Shown: one piece after another, positions 24,151-64,000 of the stretch | How positions within the stretch are numbered: the first letter of the stretch is position 1 | Layout: each line of letters starts with the position of its first letter | DNA from: Minisyncoccia bacterium | GTDB lineage: Bacteria; Patescibacteriota; Minisyncoccia; Phycocordibacterales; UBA9973 | Direction: 5' to 3' | Length of the DNA: 64,000 nt | Assembly (NCBI GenBank): GCA_039809245.1 | Contig: JBDHUP010000001.1 | Location: 100,137-164,136 of the forward strand | Made by a program: the position numbers and the translations under genes | The notes under the pieces: generated by a model | The model's input: the letters and a program-made list of their open reading frames with translations, nothing else | Told to the model about the DNA's origin: nothing | The model's database searches: none

Positions 24151-24154
24151 TTTG

Positions 24155-24240
24155 CGGAGGCGGTGAGATTCGAACTCACGGTCCTTTAAAGGGACGACGG
24201 TTTAGTAAACCGTTGATTTAAACCACTCATCCACGCCTCC
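24155..24240 (-). tRNA. Type II (long variable arm) tRNA-Ser-like gene with anticodon loop TTACTAA (anticodon ACU, A34)
   Basis: Reverse complement is GGAGGCGTGGATGAGTGGTTTAAATCAACGGTTTACTAAACCGTCGTCCCTTTAAAGGACCGTGAGTTCGAATCTCACCGCCTCCG. 3-bp D-stem, discriminator G, long variable hairpin. Confidence 0.7.
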
Positions 24241-25630: not shown

Positions 25631-25717
25631 GGAGACGTGTCAGAGTGGTCTAACGTACCTCCTTGCTAAGGAGGCAGGCTTTAATCGGCCTCGAGAGTTC
25701 GAATCTCTCCGTCTCCG
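25631..25717 (+). tRNA. tRNA-Ser (GCU), type II
   Basis: GGAGACGTGTCAGAGTGGTCTAACGTACCTCCTTGCTAAGGAGGCAGGCTTTAATCGGCCTCGAGAGTTCGAATCTCTCCGTCTCCG. Confidence 0.8.
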
Positions 25718-36459: not shown

Positions 36460-36509
36460 GGACTACATAGAAAAAGGAGTACGCAGATACTCCTTTTTCT
36501 ATGTAGTCC
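36460..36509. repeat. 50-bp perfect palindrome (22-bp arms, 6-nt loop) abutting the 3' end of tRNA-Ile. A terminator or a MITE-like insertion.
   Basis: ggactacatagaaaaaggagta cgcaga tactcctttttctatgtagtcc. Flanked by tccgccct / tccaccct. Confidence 0.6.
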
Positions 36510-36580
36510 ACCCTCTTGGATTCGAACCAAGGACCCCAGAGGTATAAGCTCTGTGCTCTAACCAACTGAGCTAAGGGTGG
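36507..36580 (-). tRNA. tRNA-Ile (anticodon UAU, reads AUA)
   Basis: Reverse complement is CCACCCTTAGCTCAGTTGGTTAGAGCACAGAGCTTATACCTCTGGGGTCCTTGGTTCGAATCCAAGAGGGTGGA. Anticodon loop is CTTATAC. Confidence 0.75.
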
Positions 36581-49602: not shown

Positions 49603-50370
49603 CTAAGCGATAGTTAAAATCTCCGCTTCACCTTCTGTTATTAGAACCGTGTGCTCAAAGTGAGCACTGCGAGAACCATCGGCAGTTTTAATAGTGTATC
49701 CATCAGACATACTTATAATCCCAGCTTTACCTATATTGAGCATTGGTTCTATAGCTACTACCATACCAGGAATAAGTTTCTGCCCTTTGCCTTTTTTACC
49801 AAAGTTTGGAATATATGGATCTTCGTGGATTTTCTTCCCTACTCCATGACCAGATAGCTCACGAACGATACCATACTTCTTCCCAACAAACTTCTCTATC
49901 GCATAGCCTATATCTCCTACTGTATTACCGCCTTTCGCTTGCTCTATTCCCACTAGGAGTGCTTCGTGTGTAATCTCGAGGAGCTTTTGTGAATCTTTAT
50001 TTATCTTACCGACTGGGACAGTCATGGCGTGGTCAGTAAATAGGCCTTTGTGCTTTAGTCCGAGATCAATAGAAATAATATCTCCTTCTTTAAGAATTCT
50101 ACTTTCTTTTGGAATACCGTGAACTATCTCGTTATTTACTGACGTACAGAGCGAGGCAGGATAAGCTTTCGGATGGCCTTCAGGTTTATAGTTTAAGAAA
50201 GCTGGCTCATCTCCACCCTCTTTTATGAGTTTATAAGCATAATCATCGAGCTCCTTTGTAGTCACTCCTGGAGCCACTTTCTTCGCCACCTGCGCCAAAA
50301 TAGAAGCAAGCCTATGCCCCCCTTCCCTTATAATCTCTATTTCTTCAGGCGTTTTAATGATAACTGCCAT
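49603..50370 (-). CDS. map: Methionine aminopeptidase type I
   Basis: Pita-bread fold metal ligands (D...D...H...E...E) in the canonical order. 255 aa. Confidence 0.9.
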   Translation of the reverse strand: MAVIIKTPEEIEIIREGGHRLASILAQVAKKVAPGVTTKELDDYAYKLIKEGGDEPAFLNYKPEGHPKAYPASLCTSVNNEIVHGIPKESRILKEGDIISIDLGLKHKGLFTDHAMTVPVGKINKDSQKLLEITHEALLVGIEQAKGGNTVGDIGYAIEKFVGKKYGIVRELSGHGVGKKIHEDPYIPNFGKKGKGQKLIPGMVVAIEPMLNIGKAGIISMSDGYTIKTADGSRSAHFEHTVLITEGEAEILTIA

Positions 50371-50399
50371 ATAAGGCTTATACTACCAGAACCACCGTT

Positions 50400-51014
50400 T
50401 TATACAACTTCCTGCTGATAGCAGGATTCACAATACAAAATAGGAGCAGTTTCTTTGCTTAAATTAGTAGTTACTTCTTTATTACAATTTGAACACTCTC
50501 TTGTAAAGAATTTGAATTCACCACGACGAGTGAGGCGATCCTTATGGCGACAGAAGAAACATTTACGTGGTAATGGTAAGTACATCTTCTTGTAGAAAAG
50601 TAATTCTTGCTCAGTAATTTTATAATTACGTTCGCAGTCCTTACAAACTAAAATTTCATTTGTAATACTATCTAATACCTCATCTATATGGTCAGGGATT
50701 TGTTCAGGTTTAAGTGTTTCTTTACCTTTTGTCATCTGAATATCATCTTCCCATCGAAAACCTAAAGACAAAGCTTCTTCTTTAGTTAAAGGAAAATTAT
50801 CTTGACCAATTGTTTCATTGTAAGCAAAAGGTGCAATATGTGCTGGCATCATCAGACCATGTACTCCTTTGTCTGTAAGCTCTCTTACAATATGATCTTT
50901 CAGTTTTAAATATTCTTCTTTCGAATACTCTTTATTAAAAATTGAATACTTACCATTTTTAAGAGCATCACAACCAATACATTCTTGGCAGTTCCTAATA
51001 TCAAAAGAATACAT
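50400..51014 (-). CDS. Cys-rich zinc-ribbon protein with a C-terminal CxxC...FYKKM.LP.P..C..CR module
   Basis: Reads CKDCERNYKITEQELLFYKKMYLPLPRKCFFCRHKDRL...CSNCNKEV...CESC. Confidence 0.5.
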   Translation of the reverse strand: MYSFDIRNCQECIGCDALKNGKYSIFNKEYSKEEYLKLKDHIVRELTDKGVHGLMMPAHIAPFAYNETIGQDNFPLTKEEALSLGFRWEDDIQMTKGKETLKPEQIPDHIDEVLDSITNEILVCKDCERNYKITEQELLFYKKMYLPLPRKCFFCRHKDRLTRRGEFKFFTRECSNCNKEVTTNLSKETAPILYCESCYQQEVV

Positions 51015-51133
51015 AATATCACTTGAATTTTCAGCCCAATATGAGCCAATAATATTACTAGAATAACCTGTAGCTACAACTTCAAGTAGTCGCTCAGATT
51101 TTGTACCATAGCCTATAGTTCCAAGAGAATCTT

Positions 51134-52066
51134 TTATTTTGTTTTAGATGAAAATAAATAACGACAATCTTCAGCCTTTGCGGCCTCAAAAGAATTAAAA
51201 ACATTTTTGCATTCATTTAAATAATCCCCAATTGAATTTGTTGTTTTTAAATTATTATTTTCCCTTCTTGGCAAAGTTTTACAAAATTCTTTAAACTTTT
51301 CTTTAGCTTCTTCAAATTTTTGATAGCTTCCTTTTATCTCCTTAAGCTTATTTAAATATTCTTCAGAACTTAATTGTTCATTAAACCAACAATGACTCTT
51401 ATTTCTTAAGTTAACACAACCAAAACAATTAGTTAGTCCACTACCATTTAATATGAAATATGAATCCACGCAACCATTAACATTTTGACCCCATATAGTG
51501 CTTGCTGATTCTTGAACGTTAACACACTCATAACAACGTTCAAAACTGACTCCAAAATAAATATCTGATGAATCAAGACCATTTTTAACACCTCGAGAAT
51601 AGAGTAATTCGTCAGCGGGACTTGTATTAAAAACAAGATAGCAATTTTTACAACCACCAGCCATATTTACATATTCACTATTTATATTTTGACCATCTCC
51701 AGTAGAAATACCCAAGTTTATTTTTGGTACTTTTATTAAAAATTCTTTCATTTGATCGAAGAATGGGCGTGATATATCATAATCTATAGAATAATCTTTT
51801 GGGTCCCATTTCTCAGAATAAAAACAATCATAACAATAAATTGTATATGGTGATTTAGGGTTATACATAGACATTACACTTTTTTCGCATAATCCGCATT
51901 TTCTTCCTGAATATAATGTCAGCTCATTACGCCAAACAGCTCTCATCTTAAAACGACATTCGGGGCAAACATGTGGAACAGGAACTTTCATCTTCTTATA
52001 GAAAGAAAAGTCGTCGGATTCGATATTGAAGGAGTTTTTGCAGTTTTGGCAGACACGAGTTTCCAT
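51134..52066 (-). CDS. Cys-rich zinc-ribbon protein with an N-terminal CxxC...FYKKM.VP.P..C..CR module
   Basis: Reads CQNCKNSFNIESDDFSFYKKMKVPVPHVCPECRFKMRAVWRNELTLYSGRKCGLCEKSV, plus further CxxC pairs. Confidence 0.5.
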   Translation of the reverse strand: METRVCQNCKNSFNIESDDFSFYKKMKVPVPHVCPECRFKMRAVWRNELTLYSGRKCGLCEKSVMSMYNPKSPYTIYCYDCFYSEKWDPKDYSIDYDISRPFFDQMKEFLIKVPKINLGISTGDGQNINSEYVNMAGGCKNCYLVFNTSPADELLYSRGVKNGLDSSDIYFGVSFERCYECVNVQESASTIWGQNVNGCVDSYFILNGSGLTNCFGCVNLRNKSHCWFNEQLSSEEYLNKLKEIKGSYQKFEEAKEKFKEFCKTLPRRENNNLKTTNSIGDYLNECKNVFNSFEAAKAEDCRYLFSSKTK

Positions 52067-52089
52067 ATATTGTATTGTACACGAGGAGC

Positions 52090-52776
52090 TTAATGTATCA
52101 CAGTACCCAAGAATTTGTCTCCATTTAAGTAATTTTTAAGATTATCTATATTCTTACCATTCATTATGACTACTTCGAGCTCTAGTTCTTCCGCTTTCTC
52201 TGCGGCTATTGGGTCAAATGGTGCGTTGAGTCCTGGGTTCCATTCTGAAGGAAGAATTTTACGGAAGTCTGCCCATGAAGATTGCTCTATCTTTACTGCA
52301 TCTGGGAACTTTTTCGGATCTTTATCATAAGCATAATCAATATTTGAAAGATTAATCACAACTTTGGCTTTAACGCTATTTGCAGCGTGAACAGCAGCAA
52401 GGTCACTAGAGTTCCCTGGTTTCCAGCCACCACCAAGAATAACACCTTTATCGGTTTGTGGGACAGCATCTGGATCCATCACTATAGAACTATGAGCTAT
52501 ATCACCGAAGCTGACTCGCAAGAGTTCAGCATTGAGTCTAGTAGAAGCAATTCCTATCCAATCTAAATCAATATCATTTGAATCTGATATTTTTTTTAAT
52601 GATTCTATGTAGTTGCGCGCAGTATGTCCGCCACCAGTAATGACGACAAATCTAAAACCTTTATCTATATATTCTTTTATAGTGTTAACAAACTCTTTAA
52701 TGAAAACTACATCTATCTCATTAGGAACAATGAGTGACCCACCAAGTGAGATGATAATGTAATCTTCTTTATTCAT
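52090..52776 (-). CDS. pyrH: Uridylate (UMP) kinase, amino-acid-kinase fold
   Basis: Reads IIISLGGSLIV...FVVITGGGHTARNYI.... 228 aa. Confidence 0.6.
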   Translation of the reverse strand: MNKEDYIIISLGGSLIVPNEIDVVFIKEFVNTIKEYIDKGFRFVVITGGGHTARNYIESLKKISDSNDIDLDWIGIASTRLNAELLRVSFGDIAHSSIVMDPDAVPQTDKGVILGGGWKPGNSSDLAAVHAANSVKAKVVINLSNIDYAYDKDPKKFPDAVKIEQSSWADFRKILPSEWNPGLNAPFDPIAAEKAEELELEVVIMNGKNIDNLKNYLNGDKFLGTVIH

Positions 52777-52777
52777 A

Positions 52778-53371
52778 CTAGAGGCCCAAAGTCTTAATTA
52801 ATTCATTGTGAACATCTTCTATGCTCTGCTCACCATTTACTGTATATATTGTGTATCCACCTTTATCTTTGAAGTAGAGCATCGCTGGTACGACATTGTT
52901 CACATATTCATCGAAACGCTTTGCTATACCTTCATCTGTATCGTCTGAGCGTCCACGGAGTTTCATTCTTTTAACTGCTTCTTCTTTCTCAACTTTAATA
53001 TAAACTATCTTTATATCTTCTCTTTTATAGAAATCCATCGCAGCTTCAAGAACTTCTGACTGAGTAGTAGTACGTGGAAAACCATCAACTATAAGGTTAG
53101 TCTCCGGTTCAAGTGAAGAGATGAGAATGTTAGTGAAAACTCCAATTGTAAGGAAGTTCGGTTGTAGCCAACCTTGTTCTAGTGTCTCTTTTACAAGTTG
53201 ACCTGTGTAGTTACCACTCTCTACGATCTTCCTGAATTCAGATCCTGGGTAGATAGAGGCAATGTTTAGATTTGAGTTTTTTTCTTTTAAATACTTTTTT
53301 AGTAATTCTATTTGAGTTCCTTTTCCAGAACCAACGATACCAAAGAATATAAATGTTTGTGGTTTTTGCAT
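52778..53371 (-). CDS. adk: Adenylate kinase (short type)
   Basis: P-loop FFGIVGSGKGTQ. DGFPRT motif. Follows secY as in the canonical operon. Confidence 0.85.
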   Translation of the reverse strand: MQKPQTFIFFGIVGSGKGTQIELLKKYLKEKNSNLNIASIYPGSEFRKIVESGNYTGQLVKETLEQGWLQPNFLTIGVFTNILISSLEPETNLIVDGFPRTTTQSEVLEAAMDFYKREDIKIVYIKVEKEEAVKRMKLRGRSDDTDEGIAKRFDEYVNNVVPAMLYFKDKGGYTIYTVNGEQSIEDVHNELIKTLGL

Positions 53372-54703: not shown

Positions 54704-55132
54704 TTATTTAACGCTCCCTCCTGCTTTTTCGATTTTAGTACGAGCAGAAGCTGAGACTGTACATCCTTCGATAGATAACTTCACATTTATCTCTCCGTTG
54801 CCGAGTATCTTTACACTAGAAGCTGTTCCACCTGATCGTCGGATAAGGTTCTTCTCAAGTAGTGTTTTAGGATTTACAACTGATCCTGAAGCAAAAACGT
54901 TAAGTTCTCCTACATTCACTGGAGTTGCTTTCTCTGTGTGAGAAGCAAATCTATATCCTCGAAGTTTCGGGATCTTCTTTATTATATCACGCATCTGTGG
55001 GCGACGTTTATTACCTGCGCGAGCTGTCTGACCCTTACCTCCACGGCCTGAAGTCTTACCACGAGTACCTCCACGACCTACTTGTCGTGCTTTCTTATTT
55101 GGATGTTCTCTTTTTAGTGTGTTTAATTGCAT
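54704..55132 (-). CDS. rplO: 50S ribosomal protein L15
   Basis: GRGGTRGKTSGRGGKGQ motif. Confidence 0.9.
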   Translation of the reverse strand: MQLNTLKREHPNKKARQVGRGGTRGKTSGRGGKGQTARAGNKRRPQMRDIIKKIPKLRGYRFASHTEKATPVNVGELNVFASGSVVNPKTLLEKNLIRRSGGTASSVKILGNGEINVKLSIEGCTVSASARTKIEKAGGSVK

Positions 55133-55138
55133 AAAATA

Positions 55139-55744
55139 TTATTTAACTTCTTCTTTATCTTCAGCTATAGCATCAGTTACTACTGGAGCCACTTTCGGAA
55201 GTGAAGATTTAGCACGAAGCTGATAAAGTGTCGCATATGCTACACGGGCATTGTTAAGTTTATTCTTACTACCTGAGTTAAGCTTAGCTGTAACGTTCTT
55301 TAGTCCTGCAAGAATCAGCATATCGCGAACAGTACTACCAGCTACAAGACCTTTGCCTCGATTAGGCATCATTGTGAGTTTTGAACTTGAGAATTTATCA
55401 GATACTTCATGAGGGATAGACATATCCTTTGTTGTCTTTATCTTGAACATATTCTTCTTTGCTTGGCGAAGAGCCTTTGCAATAGCAAGAGCAGTATCTC
55501 CACCCTTACCTGTTCCAAGTCCAATTGAACCTTTCTTATCACCAATAGCAAGAGCAACAGCAAATGTCATACGGCGTCCTCCAGCAACCACACGAGTCAC
55601 ACGGCGGATAGAAACCATCTTCTGGTCAAATTCTGGCTTTGGTCTCTCGAAGAAAGCACGTGGCTTGCGCTCACCTCCTTCTCTACGTGGACCATTTGAA
55701 GATCTTGTACCTGCTGTATTATGATTTTTCTTTGTTGTATCCAT
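55139..55744 (-). CDS. rpsE: 30S ribosomal protein S5, with an N-terminal basic extension
   Basis: IRRVTRVVAGGRRMTFAVALAIGDKKGSIGLGTGK. Confidence 0.9.
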   Translation of the reverse strand: MDTTKKNHNTAGTRSSNGPRREGGERKPRAFFERPKPEFDQKMVSIRRVTRVVAGGRRMTFAVALAIGDKKGSIGLGTGKGGDTALAIAKALRQAKKNMFKIKTTKDMSIPHEVSDKFSSSKLTMMPNRGKGLVAGSTVRDMLILAGLKNVTAKLNSGSKNKLNNARVAYATLYQLRAKSSLPKVAPVVTDAIAEDKEEVK

Positions 55745-57052: not shown

Positions 57053-57238
57053 TTACCAACTTGATTTACGAACACCTGGAAGCATACCTTCGTTTGCCAT
57101 TTCACGGAAACAGATACGGCAAAGTCCGAAATCTCTCATATATGCATGACCGCGTCCACAGCGAAAACAACGATTTGTTTCTCGTGTTGAAAATTTTGAT
57201 TTCTTATGATGTCTTGCTAATACTGATGTTTTTGCCAT
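57053..57238 (-). CDS. rpsN: 30S ribosomal protein S14, type Z (zinc-binding)
   Basis: 61 aa with [20 protein letters not shown]. Confidence 0.9.
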
Positions 57239-57382
57239 AAATAATGAAAGGGATTTTGTTCCCCTAGTGATTTCGAGATATCTCGTTCTTTTTCTTAAAA
57301 GCTTTGGCCCTTAAGGAGAAGCACGGATCTACGACTCACGTTCCCCTATACTAGCAGATAGGGTTATCTATGTCAAACTATT

Positions 57383-57805
57383 CTATTTACAGTTAATACC
57401 AGCTCTATATCCTGGTTCTTCTAGTTCAGTAGTATAGAAACCTTTACTGTCAGCACAATAGTACTTACCTGCTGGGACCTTGATACGAGCTGTGAATGTA
57501 TGGACATTGGCAACACATTCGACAGGGTTATCTATCACCTTCTTTAAGGCATCGAACTTAGATTGCATACTTACACAGATGTTGTTGTACTTAGAAATAA
57601 AGTAGTTATTGTGATCGTAGAAGAACTTTTGAGCTTGGATTTGAAGCTGATTTGAGACAACGTCTTTAATTATAGCTTCAGCAGAAGCTGTATCCTTTGC
57701 TTTTAGAGATCTTTGGAATTCAGCATTCTGATCGAGTTTGAAATATTTATATCCAGCGAATATTAGTATCGCAAATCCTATAATAAACAATATTAGCTTA
57801 GTCAT
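57383..57805 (-). CDS. Hypothetical membrane-anchored protein inserted between rplE and rpsN
   Basis: N-terminal TM segment (LILFIIGFAILIFAGY). C-terminal domain has 4 Cys. Sits between rplE and rpsN. Confidence 0.45.
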   Translation of the reverse strand: MTKLILFIIGFAILIFAGYKYFKLDQNAEFQRSLKAKDTASAEAIIKDVVSNQLQIQAQKFFYDHNNYFISKYNNICVSMQSKFDALKKVIDNPVECVANVHTFTARIKVPAGKYYCADSKGFYTTELEEPGYRAGINCK

Positions 57806-57836
57806 ATTTTCATTATACCATCTACCTCCAAATCAA

Positions 57837-57858
57837 AAAGCCCTTTGCGGGGCTTTTA
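57837..57858 (-). terminator. Strong rho-independent terminator immediately downstream of rplE, inside the spc block
   Basis: aaaagccc tttgcg gggctttt hairpin, followed by a T-run on the minus strand. Confidence 0.65.
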
Positions 57859-57865
57859 TGGAAAC

Positions 57866-58405
57866 CTACTTTTTGAATGGGAACCCGATGAGTTCGAAGA
57901 ATTCGGTTGCTTCAGGCTTTGTTTTAGCTGTTGTAACGATTGTTACGGCCAGTCCGAATATATCTTTGATATCTTCATCACCTGTCTCAGGGAAAATAGT
58001 GTGCTCCTTGATACTCATAGTTAGGTTTCCTATATTATCCACGATCTTTCGATCAACTCCACGGAAGTCTTTTGTTCGAGGGATAGCTACATTAATTAGC
58101 TTATCTAAGAATCCATACATGCGTGCTCCACGAAGAGTAACCATAACACCGATTGGGTCACCTTGGCGCATCTTGAAGCTTGCGATAGATTTCTTTGCTC
58201 CACGAGTTGCAGGCTTCTGACCTGTAATCTTTGCTAGACGCTCCATGATGAACTTATTGCGATCTTTATCACGCTTGATACCACTTCCAGTACCTGAAGC
58301 CACAACAACTTTTACAAGATGAGGCGCGGCCATAGAACTCTTATATCCATACTTAGATTTTAGAGTCGTATATGCTTTCTTTTCTTTTTGTTTTACTGTT
58401 TCCAT
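57866..58405 (-). CDS. rplE: 50S ribosomal protein L5
   Basis: 179 aa with canonical L5 sequence. Confidence 0.9.
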   Translation of the reverse strand: METVKQKEKKAYTTLKSKYGYKSSMAAPHLVKVVVASGTGSGIKRDKDRNKFIMERLAKITGQKPATRGAKKSIASFKMRQGDPIGVMVTLRGARMYGFLDKLINVAIPRTKDFRGVDRKIVDNIGNLTMSIKEHTIFPETGDEDIKDIFGLAVTIVTTAKTKPEATEFFELIGFPFKK

Positions 58406-59281: not shown

Positions 59282-59698
59282 TTATCGTGCAACTACGCGA
59301 GTGGTAACTGGTAATTTTGTACCGGCTTTGCGAAGAGCTTCTTTAGCAACAGCTTCAGATACTCCATCAACTTCAAATAGTACTCGGCCTGGGCGAACGT
59401 CTAGGCAGTAACCTTGTGGATCACCTTTACCCTTTCCCATTCCTACTTCTGCCGGCTTTGCTGTAAAAGGTCTGTCAGGGAAAACTCGAATCCACATACG
59501 GCCAGTCTTGCCGATAGTACGTGAAGTAACTTTACGTGCTGATTCTATCTGATTTGCACGGATACGTCCACCTGCAGTAGCTTTCAAGCCATATGATCCG
59601 AAGGCAACAGTAATACCACGAGTGTCAGGAGTGACCTTTGTCATGTCGGTACGGCTTGTTTGCCATTTTCTAAATTTTACTTTTTTTGGTGTTAACAT
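59282..59698 (-). CDS. rplP: 50S ribosomal protein L16
   Basis: Reads [16 protein letters not shown]... Confidence 0.9.
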
Positions 59699-59712
59699 AA
59701 AATTATTTATTA

Positions 59713-60375
59713 CTATTTTTTATCTGCATTAAAAACTTCTCCACGGTAAATCCATACTTTAATACCGATATCTCCATAACTCATATGAGCTTTCTCGCGA
59801 GCGAAATCAACATCAGCACGGAAAGTCTGAAGTGGGATTGAACCACGTTTGATCTGTTCAGAACGAGCAATTTCAGATCCAGCTAGACGGCCTCCAATGT
59901 AAATACGTGCCCCTTTTACTCCTCGAGCAGACATTATCTTCTCGATACTCTGCTTCATCACACGTCGGTAAGGAAGACGCTTCTCTAAACCTTCAGCAAT
60001 CATGCAAGCAACAATAGCAGCATCAGCATCAGGATTTGTAACTTCAACAATGTCGAATTTAAAGTCTTCAGCCATAACAATACCTTTCTTTTGCATTGCT
60101 TTTAGAAGATCAGCTTTTAACTTAGCAGCCCCCTCACCAGAACGGCCAATAATCATACCAGGGCGTGATGTGTGGACCATAACCTTTGTCGCTTTAACGT
60201 TTCTTTCGATCTCAACTCGAGATACATAGAATCCACGTAGTTTCTTTAGAAGAAATTCACGGATAACAACATCACTCTTTAGAAGATCTTTATATTTCTT
60301 ATCAGCAAACCAGCGTGATTTCCAATCACGAAGGGTTACAAGTCTATGTGCATATGGGTGTACTACTTTTGACAT
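59713..60375 (-). CDS. rpsC: 30S ribosomal protein S3
   Basis: 220 aa with KH domain and S3 C-terminal domain. Confidence 0.9.
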   Translation of the reverse strand: MSKVVHPYAHRLVTLRDWKSRWFADKKYKDLLKSDVVIREFLLKKLRGFYVSRVEIERNVKATKVMVHTSRPGMIIGRSGEGAAKLKADLLKAMQKKGIVMAEDFKFDIVEVTNPDADAAIVACMIAEGLEKRLPYRRVMKQSIEKIMSARGVKGARIYIGGRLAGSEIARSEQIKRGSIPLQTFRADVDFAREKAHMSYGDIGIKVWIYRGEVFNADKK

Positions 60376-60377
60376 AA

Positions 60378-60809
60378 TTATTTATCCTCTTTTATAACTT
60401 TCTTTTTAGCGACTTTTTTAACTTTTGGTGTCTTTTCTTTCATTTCTGCTTTTTCTTCCTTTGTAGCCTTTACCTTCTTAGCCACTGTCTTCTCTACAAG
60501 AGTAAGAGCCACGTGGCTAGTACGCTTGTTGATACGTGAAGCAGATCCTTGAGCACGAGGCATAGAACGCTTCAAGACAATACCTTTATTTACTGTAACA
60601 TTTTCAACATATAAATCAGTATCTGAGATACCAGCTTGGCGAGCATTAGCAACAGCTGACTTCAAAAGGTCTTCTATCGGCTTTGAAGCTCTCTTTGGCA
60701 TTGCGTGCAAATGAACAAAAGCATCAGCAACCCTTTTGCCTTTTAGTAAGTCTGCTACAAGGCGAACCTTGCGTGGAGACTGTCTATAGTTTTTCAAAAA
60801 TGCTTTCAT
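60378..60809 (-). CDS. rplV: 50S ribosomal protein L22, with a Lys-rich C-terminal extension
   Basis: Reads MKAFLKNYRQSPRKVRLVADLLKGK... Confidence 0.9.
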   Translation of the reverse strand: MKAFLKNYRQSPRKVRLVADLLKGKRVADAFVHLHAMPKRASKPIEDLLKSAVANARQAGISDTDLYVENVTVNKGIVLKRSMPRAQGSASRINKRTSHVALTLVEKTVAKKVKATKEEKAEMKEKTPKVKKVAKKKVIKEDK

Positions 60810-60818
60810 AGTTTAATG

Positions 60819-61160
60819 TTATTTCTTTGAGTCAGTCGAAGCTTTCGCGGCTTTGGAAGCGGATATTTCGGCTTCTTTCTTCTTAATCTCTAATTCTTTC
60901 TGCATCTTACCTCCGTGTCTGACGAACTTACGAGTTAGGGAGAATTCACCGAGTCGGTGACCTACCATATCTTCACTCACCAGGACTTCTACGTGTGTCT
61001 TACCATTATGAACTCCGAACACGAATCCTACCATTTCTGGAGAAATTACGCATGCGCGAGACCAGGTTTTAATCATACCTGTTTCAATAGGTTTCTTGCC
61101 GGCAATCTTTTTCAAGAGCCTTTCGTCTACGTATGGACCTTTTTTGAGTGACCTTGTCAT
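60819..61160 (-). CDS. rpsS: 30S ribosomal protein S19, with a Lys/Ala-rich C-terminal tail
   Basis: Reads [19 protein letters not shown]...GHRLGEF. Confidence 0.9.
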
Positions 61161-61336
61161 ATACAATATAAATAAGCTCTTCTGAGCTCGTCCGTCTATA
61201 CTAGCAAATATAGAAATAAAGTCAAATTACTTCCCCTCCCCTATATCATATACATAACCCTTATTTGACAAAACCCACAATAAAGGTAGGATTAAGAAAA
61301 ATTCACAATATTTCAAAACAAACAAAATAATAGAGT

Positions 61337-62098
61337 ATGAACAAGTCACAAACTCAAGATTTGATTAACCAATATGGTTATGACAATCTTAAACTTCTTG
61401 AAGCTGTTGGTGGTTTTTATGAAGTTGCAAAAAATGCCGAGGGTAAACGTTTAACACCTTTAGTTGGCTATGCTGGTAAATACCCAAAAAATGGCCAGGA
61501 ATTTCAATACGTTGGGGAAGTTTATGTGAACTTTGCGAAAGCAGAGGAGCATCCCCACATAATGTACAACTTCGCCAAAAAGCTTTGGGACAAGTTAAAA
61601 ATCCATGAGCCTATAGTATTTATTGGGCCAGCAATGGGTGGCATTTCGGTGGCACAACTCTTAACACTACATGCTTCACAAGACACCAAAGCCAGGTATG
61701 CTTGTGCTGAGAAAATTGTTACGGTAGCAAAAACTGCAACCACTGAAGAACAATCTTCTTTTTCTATCTTAAGGCACAGCCTCTACCCCGGAGAAACAGT
61801 TGGAATTGTTGAAGATGTATTGAACAATTTTTCTACAACGGATAAATTAATCCGGCTTGTAGAATCGTACGGGGCAAAGGTTGGTATTATTGTTGGACTT
61901 TTAAACCGTTCAACAAAAATTGATTCAGTATACATGCACAGAGGTCAACCAATCCCTGTTGTTTCTTTAATAAGAAAATTATTTGAAAGTTACGAGCAGG
62001 AAGATCTGTATGTAATTGAAGATGTGGCAACCGACAATGTAGTTTGGAAGCCAAAGAATGACTGGGATAAATTAAAAAAGGCTGCTGAGAAAAAATAA
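61337..62098 (+). CDS. pyrE: Orotate phosphoribosyltransferase-like type I PRTase
   Basis: PRPP-binding motif VGIVEDVLNNFSTTDKLI. pyrF is adjacent. Confidence 0.5.
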   Translation: MNKSQTQDLINQYGYDNLKLLEAVGGFYEVAKNAEGKRLTPLVGYAGKYPKNGQEFQYVGEVYVNFAKAEEHPHIMYNFAKKLWDKLKIHEPIVFIGPAMGGISVAQLLTLHASQDTKARYACAEKIVTVAKTATTEEQSSFSILRHSLYPGETVGIVEDVLNNFSTTDKLIRLVESYGAKVGIIVGLLNRSTKIDSVYMHRGQPIPVVSLIRKLFESYEQEDLYVIEDVATDNVVWKPKNDWDKLKKAAEKK

Positions 62099-62118
62099 CT
62101 CAACAGCAAGGCAAAAAT

Positions 62119-62150
62119 AAAAAGCAGAATTTAATAATTCTGCTTTTTAA
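62119..62150. terminator. Bidirectional terminator between pyrE (+) and pyrF (-)
   Basis: aaagcagaatta/taattctgcttt palindrome flanked by A/T runs. Confidence 0.6.
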
Positions 62151-62165
62151 ATTTATTCTCTTTTT

Positions 62166-63110
62166 TTATGCAAACTCGCCATATTTTTTACGGCGGAATG
62201 CCATGATCTTACCATTCAAATCCACAATATAATTGTTACACACCTCGGCATAATCTTCATTTTTGGAACCATACAACGCTGCCCGGGAAACATTAAGGAC
62301 AATTCGTCCTCTTCTCGTCATGCCGGCATCAAGCGATGCTTCAAGATCACCTTCCTGTGTACCGTGACCAGGAATTAGTAAGTAGCGATCGTCACCAATT
62401 ATTCGGCGAACAGCTGCCATGTTTTCAGGATACGTTGCCCCGGTAACAAGGCCTACATTAGGTGACCAGGTAATAGCTTTCTTTGCCACGTTTTGATAAA
62501 GCGGTAAAATTTCACCGTTCAAATTAGCTGTAACAATTTTATCCCACCAATCCATCTTGCCAACTCCATCTGGTATGGCAGCAGGATTAAAAGGAAGAGT
62601 CCATAAACCTTGGATTTCATCAGCTTTTTCATTCGATGTCTGGCAAAGGACAAAAACTAACTTATCTCTTAATACTTCTTTTTCATCAACCATCTTAAAA
62701 AAGAACGGCTTATTAGCTTCGCCACCTAAATAAGGAGCAATTGTAAAGGCATCAAATATTTCCAGCATTTCCATATAAGCCATGTTTGTATTGCCAATGT
62801 CTCCACGTTTTCCATCTCCAATTAAAAAAACATCTGGAAATTTTTTTCTGATATACCTTACAATTTCCTCAAGCATTGATATGCCCTCGCCACCAAACCG
62901 TTCGAAAAAAGCCAGGTTGGGTTTATATGATTGTACATTACCACCGGTGGCAACAATGATATTAAGAAGAAAATCATAACAAGCAGTTATTTTTTCCTTT
63001 AAACCATCGCCTTTTACACTTTTTGGTAGTTTATCATAGTCTACATCGAGACCAAGACAACTGTAGCGCCCTAAGGCAGCTAAATTAGAGAGAATCTTGT
63101 TGTAATTCAT
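62166..63110 (-). CDS. pyrF: Orotidine-5'-phosphate decarboxylase, long type-2 form
   Basis: DxKxxDIxxT motif (IGDGKRGDIGNT). 314 aa. Confidence 0.7.
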   Translation of the reverse strand: MNYNKILSNLAALGRYSCLGLDVDYDKLPKSVKGDGLKEKITACYDFLLNIIVATGGNVQSYKPNLAFFERFGGEGISMLEEIVRYIRKKFPDVFLIGDGKRGDIGNTNMAYMEMLEIFDAFTIAPYLGGEANKPFFFKMVDEKEVLRDKLVFVLCQTSNEKADEIQGLWTLPFNPAAIPDGVGKMDWWDKIVTANLNGEILPLYQNVAKKAITWSPNVGLVTGATYPENMAAVRRIIGDDRYLLIPGHGTQEGDLEASLDAGMTRRGRIVLNVSRAALYGSKNEDYAEVCNNYIVDLNGKIMAFRRKKYGEFA

Positions 63111-63240
63111 CGTATTTAGTTTTAAGTGAAAATTATTGTTTGATTCAAAAGCCCAGAAAAGGCGCTTAAATCAAACAATAATAACCATCACAATTTCGTG
63201 AAATTCTACTGTAAATATAATAATTAGTCAAACAGAGGTT

Positions 63241-63627
63241 TTAGAAGATAAAAATTTTCGGGAGGAAAATTATCAGTCCGACTAGGCCGGCGATGGCGAC
63301 GGTTATGAGAACTGCACCAGCGGCGACATCTTTTGTATCGCGAGCATATGGATGATAGTTCGGACTAGTAAGGTCAACTTCAATTTCAATAGCAGTATTT
63401 ATCGTCTCAGCGAGAATAACGAGGCCGATTGCGAAAATTATAGCGATCCACTCCAAAGATGATATATGTAAGATAATACCAAGATATATAGCTAAAACTG
63501 AAAAGAAAACGTGGACCCATGCATTGTGAGTAGTCCTGATGAAAACTCCTATGCCACGAAATGCATGAGTAGTACTCTTTATCCTTTTGACTATTGAGAA
63601 TCTTTTCTTTTCTGATAGCTTTTCCAT
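63241..63627 (-). CDS. dgkA: Diacylglycerol/undecaprenol kinase (DgkA family). The start is the internal Met MEKLSEKK.
   Basis: Three TM helices and the motif ETINTAIEIEVD. Confidence 0.7.
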   Translation of the reverse strand: MEKLSEKKRFSIVKRIKSTTHAFRGIGVFIRTTHNAWVHVFFSVLAIYLGIILHISSLEWIAIIFAIGLVILAETINTAIEIEVDLTSPNYHPYARDTKDVAAGAVLITVAIAGLVGLIIFLPKIFIF

Positions 63628-63642
63628 TGCTTTAGTATACAA

Positions 63643-63670
63643 CAAAAATACCCCTTTCGGGGTATTTTTG
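63643..63670 (-). terminator. Rho-independent terminator immediately after rplB
   Basis: caaaaatacccc tttc ggggtatttttg hairpin flanked by T-runs. Confidence 0.6.
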
Positions 63671-63675
63671 TTTTT

Positions 63676-64000
63676 TATCCTTTCTTTGATTTTCCTACCT
63701 TTCGGCGAGAAACAATCCACATATTTGAGTACTTCTTTGGAGTGCGAGTCTTCTGACCTTTTCCAGATGGCTTACCCCACTTAGTCTTAGCACGGCGTAG
63801 ACCTCGTCCTTGTGCTCCTTCACCTCCTCCGTATGGGTGATCAACTGGGTTCATAGCACTTCCTCGAACTGTAGGTCGGATACCCTTCCAGCGAGAACGT
63901 CCTGCTTTACCAAAGTTTTGAAGTTTATATTCAGAGTTTGAAACTTCACCAATTGAAGCGTAACAATTTTCAGAAACTTTTCGAACTTCTGTTGATGGCA
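63676..64000 (-). CDS. rplB: 50S ribosomal protein L2. C-terminal part only; the N-terminus lies beyond the window end.
   Basis: Translation reads ...[62 protein letters not shown]-stop. Confidence 0.9.

Follow-up and report, generated by a model that had tools for sequence, protein, structure and literature searches.

In Escherichia coli and Bacillus subtilis the S10 operon runs rpsJ-rplC-rplD-rplW-rplB-rpsS-rplV-rpsC-rplP-rpmC-rpsQ, and in E. coli its leader is the site of L4-mediated attenuation. Here we describe the corresponding locus in a stretch of 64,000 nucleotides (nt) from a Minisyncoccia bacterium (assembly GCA_039809245.1, contig JBDHUP010000001.1, positions 100,137 to 164,136; hereafter the window, in whose own numbering positions are given). 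Apart from rpmC (L29), which is missing from its usual place, it shares with the canonical operon its genes, their order, the single strand and the spc-type genes that follow, but it is cut between rplB (protein L2) and rpsS (protein S19) by a predicted terminator, a 2.5-kb stretch of genes unrelated to the ribosome and a predicted promoter that is absent from the canonical operon. Instead of the few tens of nucleotides expected of a contiguous pair, the rplB stop codon and the rpsS start codon are 2514 nt apart, and the interval holds two strong predicted terminators and a gene on the opposite strand. Taken together, the comparisons described below point, with a probability of roughly three in four, to an S10 operon that was cut after rplB into two transcription units in the Paceibacteria clade of the window (Nomurabacteria-like members of the candidate phyla radiation, CPR), the cut site acting as a docking spot for cargo genes.

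Insertions between operons of the translation supercluster have been described in Gammaproteobacteria and Bacilli, where the flanking gene pairs were often fully disconnected in the descendants and where small metabolic sets such as nrdHEF, ilv-leu, tusDCB and bfd-bfr are found (PMC8046335). This later disconnection parallels the spectrum of rplB-rpsS distances observed in the current study. However, three of the four insertions detailed in that work lie between operons and one inside the rpoBC operon, whereas the present break lies inside the S10 operon, is found clade-wide and comes with a conserved promoter and leader of its own. The splitting of operons and the insertion of genes into the translation supercluster are known processes, and what is new is a hotspot inside the S10 operon at the rplB-rpsS junction with a conserved leader. 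Neither this break nor the phosphoribosyltransferase family discussed below was found described in the literature searched, and the AGNOSTOS paper (PMC9132574) concerns a different ribosomal neighbourhood and is not relevant.

The leader can also be compared with known regulatory RNAs. As in the ribosomal-protein leaders surveyed previously (PMC3616713), a promoter-proximal hairpin and a U-rich tract precede a ribosomal-protein operon and are kept across a clade; in contrast to them, the rpsS leader has no Rfam match, its stem measures only 6 bp, and it is also encountered before tRNA, S12 and S14 units. A second likeness is to the stem-loops that stabilise bacterial mRNAs at their 5' terminus, since the rpsS hairpin would start a few nucleotides from the predicted transcription start. 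The 5' untranslated region (UTR) of ompA is an example of this class, but the conserved U-rich tract behind the rpsS stem would also fit an attenuator or insulator. An Rfam scan (gathering threshold over the whole window, E<=10 over 60700-64000) returned no family for any of the hairpins of the region, no relevant match for the rpsS leader, and no S10-leader or L4-type element.

An earlier note on this DNA, made from the sequence alone, had placed rplB, dgkA, pyrF, a pyrE-like gene and rpsS in the interval and at its borders, and a map of open reading frames (ORFs) together with family scans assigned all five genes in the same way. The 3' part of rplB (63675..64000, minus strand; PF03947, 98 bits; TIGR01171, 137 bits for the partial protein) extends past the window end, contributes the C-terminal 107 residues of L2 and stops with TAA at 63675-63677. 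It is followed on the same strand by dgkA (63241-63627), a member of the diacylglycerol/undecaprenol kinase family that covers positions 2-102 of the 102 of PF01219 (108.5 bits), and by pyrF (62166-63110), which encodes an orotidine monophosphate (OMP) decarboxylase of subfamily 2 (TIGR02127 pyrF_sub2, 159.5 bits against a cutoff of 110.6; PF00215). A longer dgkA ORF overlapping rplB was rejected as spurious, since homologues begin at the ATG at 63627. The next gene (61337-62098) lies on the plus strand, and its product of 253 amino acids (aa), here called PRT, is a divergent type I phosphoribosyltransferase (PF00156, 31.7 bits). A divergent spacer of 176 nt separates this gene from rpsS (60819-61160, minus strand; TIGR01050, 114.8 bits against a cutoff of 89), whose start codon, the ATG at 61160, is consistent with the starts of its homologues. 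The ribosomal run then continues on the minus strand with rplV, rpsC and rplP (59282..60809; ORFs matched by phmmer to the identical gene order in relatives), giving the downstream order S19, L22, S3, L16, S17, while upstream of rplB the relatives carry tuf-S10-L3-L4-L23. The GC content of the interval (0.34-0.42) is close to that of the flanking ribosomal-protein genes (0.37-0.43).

The signals expected of two separate units lie exactly at the borders of the interval. Behind rplB, a predicted intrinsic terminator of the S10-to-L2 unit (63641..63672, minus strand) consists of an A-tract, a 14-bp stem and a U-tract, is symmetric on both strands, and folds with a dG of -20.6 kcal/mol (z -6.3); hairpins of -15 to -25 kcal/mol are also found behind the rplB stop codon in L006, L009, L014, L090 and L159, five relatives in which the spacer between rplB and dgkA is short. 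A second hairpin (62118..62149), with a 14-bp stem and T-runs on both strands, is a predicted bidirectional terminator of the convergent pyrF and PRT genes (-17.4 kcal/mol and z -4.8 on the minus strand; -15.5 kcal/mol and z -4.4 on the plus strand). Both have the form of Rho-independent terminators and are predicted to fold far below shuffled sequences. On the other border, a predicted rpsS promoter (61198..61225, minus strand) comprises a TTGACT -35 element (61225-61220), a 16-nt spacer and a TAGTAT -10 element (61203-61198) preceded by TGC. It is followed after 8-9 nt by the leader (61161..61189, minus strand), in which the hairpin GAGCUC-AGAA-GAGCUU (61174-61189) is succeeded by a U-rich tract reaching the ATG at 61160. 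Three further proposals of the earlier note, namely a terminator hairpin belonging to rplB, a divergent gene with a terminator inside the interval, and a new promoter driving rpsS, are thus supported by a strong predicted fold kept in relatives, by the plus-strand PRT gene with its bidirectional hairpin, and by a predicted near-consensus promoter that is strongly conserved.

Conservation of this arrangement was examined in 80 genome loci retrieved with the PRT alignment and 80 metagenome loci retrieved with the S19 protein of the window, which were annotated by phmmer with the proteins of the window and its relatives as queries. The relatives share a common block formed by TTGACt, a 16-17-nt spacer, TGC-TAGTAT, 7-10 nt, (A/G)GCTC-loop-GAGC(T/C), a T-rich run and the ATG. 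A sequence of the form TTGACn-N16-18-TAnnAT occurs within 150 nt upstream of rpsS in 52 of 64 assessable relatives, and 33 of the 64 additionally show the strict hairpin pattern 7-10 nt from the -10 element. A composite regular expression for promoter plus hairpin matched 56 times in the 1.98 Mb of fetched DNA, about 50 times upstream of rpsS, the remaining matches preceding S14 (2), S12 (1), L3 (1) and a few unassigned ORFs. Moreover, a covariance model seeded with 53 distinct instances (R1) matched before rpsS in 52 of the 80 loci fetched by S19 and in each of the seven loci of the window's clade that were fetched by PRT and extend to rpsS, and almost nowhere else in 1.37 Mb of further CPR DNA. 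Covariation is seen in the two outer pairs of the stem (AU 38, GC 5, GU 4, CG 1 for one pair; AU 20, GU 16, UA 3, UG 1 for the other), and the observed covariation score was reached by none of 500 shuffles. The loop varies between 3 and 9 nt, but the hairpin keeps to 7-10 nt from the -10 element, and for this reason a stem formed in the RNA, at the 5' end of the mRNA, is favoured over a DNA operator; a palindrome bound by a dimeric repressor was rejected on account of the variable loop. The hairpin may act as a 5' stabiliser, an attenuator or an insulator.

The same module occurs elsewhere. In the window, R1 also matches at 2574-2635, where TTGCAA-17-TATAAT is followed after 8 nt by a GGCTC-TTAG-GAGCG hairpin and a T-run. 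These elements are arranged as in the rpsS leader and lie immediately before a tRNA-Met/tRNA-Met/tRNA-Asp cluster. Besides, the module lies before S12, S14 and L3 in the relatives L093, L022 and L124.

The distance between rplB and rpsS was determined in 47 related loci with both genes on one strand. The junction is tight (<=72 nt) in six loci, none of which has the leader; it measures 73-200 nt in eight loci, all of them with the leader, 201-1000 nt in 16 (leader in 12), 1001-3000 nt, the group of the window, in ten (leader in eight), and more than 3000 nt, up to 6.4 kb, in seven, again all with the leader. In four further loci the 10 kb upstream of rpsS contain no rplB. The earlier note had described a 2.5-kb insertion and suggested comparing synteny in related genomes: the size of the gap was correct and the split recurs (41 of the 47 loci have a gap above 72 nt), although it is not a private event of this genome, as the split, the rpsS promoter and the leader are common to the clade and it is the cargo that varies. 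In agreement with this, a neighbour-joining tree of S19 shows the leader in every member of the window's clade and the tight junction in none.

The cargo itself is heterogeneous. In an all-against-all BLAST comparison 92 of the 111 unlabelled ORFs found in the gaps were singletons, and there is therefore no shared island acting as common cargo. The sole frequent passenger is dgkA, which lies between rplB and rpsS in L003, L009, L014, L082, L085, L086, L090, L118, L159, L164 and L166. Other families include a MazF toxin, an IS200-type transposase, a GH3 glycosidase, rplJ-rplL plus an MscS channel, a ParB-like protein, a sigma-54 activator, an aminotransferase and surface-repeat proteins. In a Kaiserbacteria locus (L022), pyrF-PRT is found between rpsJ and rplC, and a DUF3298 gene parts rplB from rpsS. 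As a separate observation, another ribosomal operon has moved into the hotspot in two loci: L100 carries rplJ and rplL (L10 and L7/L12), an unassigned ORF and an MscS-like channel gene between rplB and rpsS (990-1856), and homologues of L10 and of the unassigned and MscS ORFs occupy the same site in L154 (7639-8004 and downstream).

Considering these patterns, the upstream unit tuf-S10-L3-L4-L23-L2 would end at a strong intrinsic terminator, and the downstream unit beginning with S19-L22-S3-L16-S17 would start at its own near-consensus promoter of the sigma-70 type, with the GCUC/GAGC stem-loop and U-rich tract 7-10 nt past it placing a stem-loop at the 5' end of the mRNA. DNA arriving between terminator and promoter would have no polar effect because the two halves would no longer depend on co-transcription, and the site may thus be tolerated as a docking place whose content turns over fast. 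As the leader is present at all eight gaps of 73-200 nt and at none of the six gaps of <=72 nt, the simplest history places promoter and leader before cargo: from a tight ancestral junction, an internal promoter and leader would have been gained in the spacer, cargo would have piled up upstream of them, and full disconnection would have followed. In the sub-lineage of the window, pyrD-pyrC-PRT would have pointed away from rpsS, and pyrF and dgkA would have stood next to rplB.

The history of the window's own cargo can be followed in its closest relatives. The nearest PRT homologues on long contigs, L164 (JGI, 207 kb) and L166 (GCA_040384425.1), show S19 on one strand and pyrD, pyrC and PRT reading away from it on the other, followed by pyrF (in the direction of PRT in L164, in the opposite direction in L166) and then by dgkA and, further on, L2, both in the direction of S19. 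A pyrD-pyrC-PRT-pyrF island also occupies this site in L002, L003 and L010. The gene labelled amidohydrolase in L002 and L003 is a dihydroorotase of the pyrC_dimer type (290-291 bits against a cutoff of 293), that of L010 is a close homologue, and the dihydroorotase of L164 is instead a 450-aa protein of the PF12890 type. With the pyrD and pyrC proteins of the relatives as phmmer queries, no homologue of either was found in the 64 kb of the window, a result that applies to this stretch and not to the genome as a whole. When the spacers are aligned, the left part of the one between rpsS and PRT in the window corresponds to the DNA between rpsS and pyrD in the relatives, including the rpsS promoter and leader, and its right part to their pyrC-PRT spacer. 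This right part contains a predicted PRT promoter (TTGACA-16-TAGGAT; 61265..61292, plus strand), whose conserved block TTTGACAAAA..ATAAAGGTAGGAT lies before PRT in L164 and L166 and also before pyrD in L164. Recombination between such near-identical promoter repeats may have excised pyrD and pyrC, which would give exactly the arrangement of the window. What would be left over is PRT (orotate to OMP) and pyrF (OMP to uridine monophosphate, UMP), each with its own promoter and with one bidirectional terminator between them, together with dgkA. The larger island in the closest PRT relatives indicates that the state of the window arose by loss and not by gain, and its cargo is a reduced remnant of a pyrD-pyrC-PRT-pyrF island rather than a fresh insertion. 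Further reduction and exchange are seen among the relatives, since L014 keeps PRT at the site with pyrF absent there, and type-1 and type-2 pyrF alternate at one position.

The assignment of PRT depends on its fold and its gene context. The protein has the type I phosphoribosyltransferase fold and is nearest to known structures of orotate phosphoribosyltransferases (OPRTs). A family search retrieved 233 proteins at E<=1e-3, well conserved in CPR, with invariant motifs that include IVEDVxNNFSTT and NRS. In 68 of the 80 loci pyrF lies within 400 nt of PRT, and in 60 it immediately precedes PRT on the same strand; 26 of the 80 have pyrD and/or pyrC no more than 5 kb away, and the pyrD-pyrC-pyrF-PRT operons are translationally coupled. 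The closest described enzymes are those of the HP1257/TIGR01367 ('pyrE_Therm') family, which gives the best NCBIfam match of PRT at 42.2 bits, under the family cutoff of 150.25. PRT is 17% identical to HP1257 and differs from it by about 60 additional residues at the N-terminus, 11 residues inserted into the catalytic loop, a longer C-terminus and the NNFSTT phosphate loop. The PRT family also reaches cultured alphaproteobacteria: in Lichenihabitans/Lichenibacterium (L030, L032, L064 and other loci; for example L032 7102-10762) a coupled pyrD-pyrC-pyrF(type 2)-PRT operon lies among aminotransferase and GntR genes. The whole cassette was probably transferred there across phyla, and it is probably a second copy of the pathway in these bacteria, which we presume to hold canonical pyr genes.

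Several other explanations of the locus have to be weighed against the split described above. Were the S10 operon still functionally one unit, its hairpins would be leaky attenuators, rpsS would be reached mainly by read-through from the S10 promoter, and the promoter-like sequences would be incidental. Cargo that is co-directional with the operon in many relatives would fit such an arrangement, as would a dgkA ATG only 13 nt past the rplB terminator, too close for a full promoter, and a generic promoter scan of the region that was not enriched over shuffled sequence. Yet read-through in the window would have to pass two strong terminators and then the whole PRT gene in antisense, near-consensus -35 and -10 elements recur at fixed geometry in dozens of relatives despite diverged flanks, and four relatives have no rplB in the 10 kb before rpsS, which together make a single unit improbable. 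A recent, genome-specific insertion of a mobile or horizontally acquired 2.5-kb island into an otherwise intact operon appears more improbable still: IS200-type transposase, toxin-antitoxin or DUF559 endonuclease-like genes do occur at the junction in some relatives, and the PRT family has crossed phyla into Lichenihabitans, but the interval of the window shows none of the hallmarks searched for (integrase, transposase, flanking direct repeats or att sites, compositional shift), a repeat search around the cargo gave short chance matches only, the rpsS promoter, leader and rplB terminator are older than the cargo, being present at gaps of 73-200 nt, and the closest PRT relatives carry the larger island in the same place. 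A chimera misjoining two contigs near 61200 and/or 63650, which the earlier note had proposed to check, was considered solely because the window is presumably metagenome-derived, and nothing in its favour was found. A Logan contig of SRR19427084 (L001) encodes an identical PRT protein in the order L22-S19, PRT, pyrF, dgkA, L2, and a 99%-identical PRT in matching gene order lies on Logan contigs of SRR23083766 (L162) and SRR23083762 (L163). Because the arrangement and its junctions recur on contigs of three sequencing runs it is not a chimera, and homologous arrangements in many independently assembled metagenome-assembled genomes, a uniform GC content and conserved regulatory signals placed exactly at both junctions agree with this, so that misassembly is refuted for practical purposes. 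Nevertheless, several points do weigh against a dedicated split with its own leader. We infer promoter and terminator activity from sequence and conservation, the leader hairpin taken by itself is weak (-7.5 kcal/mol, z -1.95), its four GCUC/GAGC core pairs are invariant partly through the choice of seeds and the covariation comes from the two outer pairs only, and the module is not specific to rpsS, as it sometimes precedes S14, S12, L3 or a tRNA operon. Additionally, coverage of the clade is uneven, the loci having been fetched by similarity to PRT or S19, and the S19 tree was built on 92 residues and has poor resolution.

As to the cargo, the earlier note had seen in it the last two steps of UMP synthesis. 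This holds firmly for pyrF and stands as the best reading of the pair, while the label pyrE-like has to be qualified, given that PRT falls under every curated pyrE cutoff (TIGR00336, TIGR01367, NF001729; also 21.1 bits against 106.8). From its fold and gene context, PRT is quite probably an OPRT and a PyrE analogue. If it were instead another enzyme dependent on phosphoribosyl pyrophosphate (PRPP), or a PRPP-sensing regulator of the PyrR/PurR kind, the last two steps would not be encoded here; we regard this as rather unlikely, though it has more in its favour than the alternatives to the split. Along with the curated scores (42 against 150 bits), it is favoured by an atypical PRPP loop (EDVxNNFSTT), in which IVEDV is invariant and NNFSTT replaces TTG(G)T at the 5'-phosphate, by structures of PurR and adenine phosphoribosyltransferase that match well too, by an apparent second pyrimidine set in Lichenihabitans, given the canonical genes presumed there, and by a second OPRT-like gene adjoining PRT in the L002 island. 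Such second, very divergent OPRT-like genes are found at 11746-12435 in L002 (67 bits, NF001729) and at 13878-14843 in L010, so that in such islands either of the two genes may encode the working OPRT. A much bolder proposal, which we put forward only tentatively and hold to be more doubtful than not, would unite all of these elements: the rplB terminator and the rpsS promoter with its GCUC-GAGC hairpin and U-tract would form a dedicated insulator-regulator cassette with a single origin in a large clade of Paceibacteria; the hairpin would be a new cis-regulatory RNA (an attenuator or protein-binding leader) of translation-apparatus operons; the cassette would make the junction a plug-in site for exchanged cargo such as pyrimidine genes, dgkA and even rplJL; and PRT would represent an unrecognised class of OPRT that replaces canonical PyrE in CPR and was transferred to Lichenihabitans.

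The locus illustrates, through comparison with its relatives, how an operon that is essential and conserved almost everywhere may be split, with the suggested order of an internal promoter and leader in a 73-200-nt spacer first, cargo next, and complete separation of the halves at the end. This has practical consequences, since CPR phylogenomics and bin curation assume a syntenic block of ribosomal-protein genes on one scaffold, and a hypervariable hotspot in the middle of the block bears on contig breaks and marker recovery. Moreover, the cargo series from pyrD-pyrC-PRT-pyrF to PRT-pyrF and to PRT alone reflects a stepwise decay of pyrimidine synthesis in host-dependent bacteria, and predicts that the organism of the window makes UMP from imported orotate. 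Two molecular objects are also brought out by the analysis, namely a promoter-proximal hairpin that translation genes carry throughout the clade and a divergent family of OPRT-like enzymes.

Less regular signals accompany dgkA and pyrF. A candidate -10-like hexamer, TATACT (63634..63639, minus strand), lies 6 nt before the dgkA ATG with no good -35 element. Each of the five relatives whose rplB-dgkA spacer is short shares this feature with the window, the hexamer (TATAAT, TATACT or TAAGAT) standing 6-7 nt ahead of the start codon. This suggests that the dgkA transcript could be leaderless, with read-through of the rplB terminator as the alternative. An extended -10 (TGn) version of this promoter was dropped, as the placement of the TG is inconsistent among relatives. 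For pyrF, a promoter-like site TTGACT-17-TAGAAT (63203..63231, minus strand) agrees with the consensus at 10 of 12 positions, in a spacer shared by no relative. The dgkA-pyrF spacer also contains an 18-bp AU-rich hairpin (63132..63182, minus strand) within a 92-nt stretch (63111-63202; -29.5 kcal/mol, z -6.9), which could be a dgkA terminator or a (pyrimidine-responsive) attenuator in the pyrF 5' UTR. A motif resembling the PyrR-binding loop in this hairpin was dropped because it lies on the wrong strand, and the Rfam scan gave no match to the PyrR family.

The pyrH gene that the earlier note had reported close by is present (52090-52776) and belongs to the archaeal type (TIGR02076, 187.8 bits). 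Together with the low GC content and with related genomes assigned to Paceibacterota and Nomurabacteria, this type of pyrH places the organism in the CPR/Patescibacteria. The gene lies in a segment (49603-53371) that holds adk, pyrH, two Cys-rich zinc-ribbon ORFs (310 aa and 204 aa) and then map; the two ORFs have no solid family match and, together with pyrH, part adk from map. In L014, L108, L111, L116 and L159 pyrH is located similarly far downstream of rpsS.

Other irregularities were observed in the ribosomal block. A second break of the supercluster (57053-57866) is formed by a 140-aa ORF (57383-57805, minus strand) between rplE and rpsN (S14), which has an N-terminal hydrophobic segment and no family match and is 79% identical to an ORF at the same place in L164. 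S14 has its own predicted promoter, TTGACA-17-TAGTAT (57376-57348), and a structured leader of 109 nt. At the expected place of S14 downstream of rplE, L166 carries a HicA toxin and other genes, and the fetched stretch of this locus contains no S14. The window has no rpmC (L29) ORF between rplP and rpsQ (59282-59292) and no rpmD (L30) between rpsE and rplO (54704-55744), and phmmer searches of the window with E. coli and B. subtilis sequences of both proteins, a weak test, found nothing. L164 and L166 likewise lack L29 between rplP and rpsQ. CPR bacteria typically lack L30, but that L29 is missing from its normal position is less expected. Finally, two of the tRNAs predicted by ARAGORN have unusual anticodons: ACT in a tRNA-Ser (24154-24240) that neighbours an ordinary tRNA-Ser(GCT) at 25631, and TAT in a tRNA-Ile (36506-36580).

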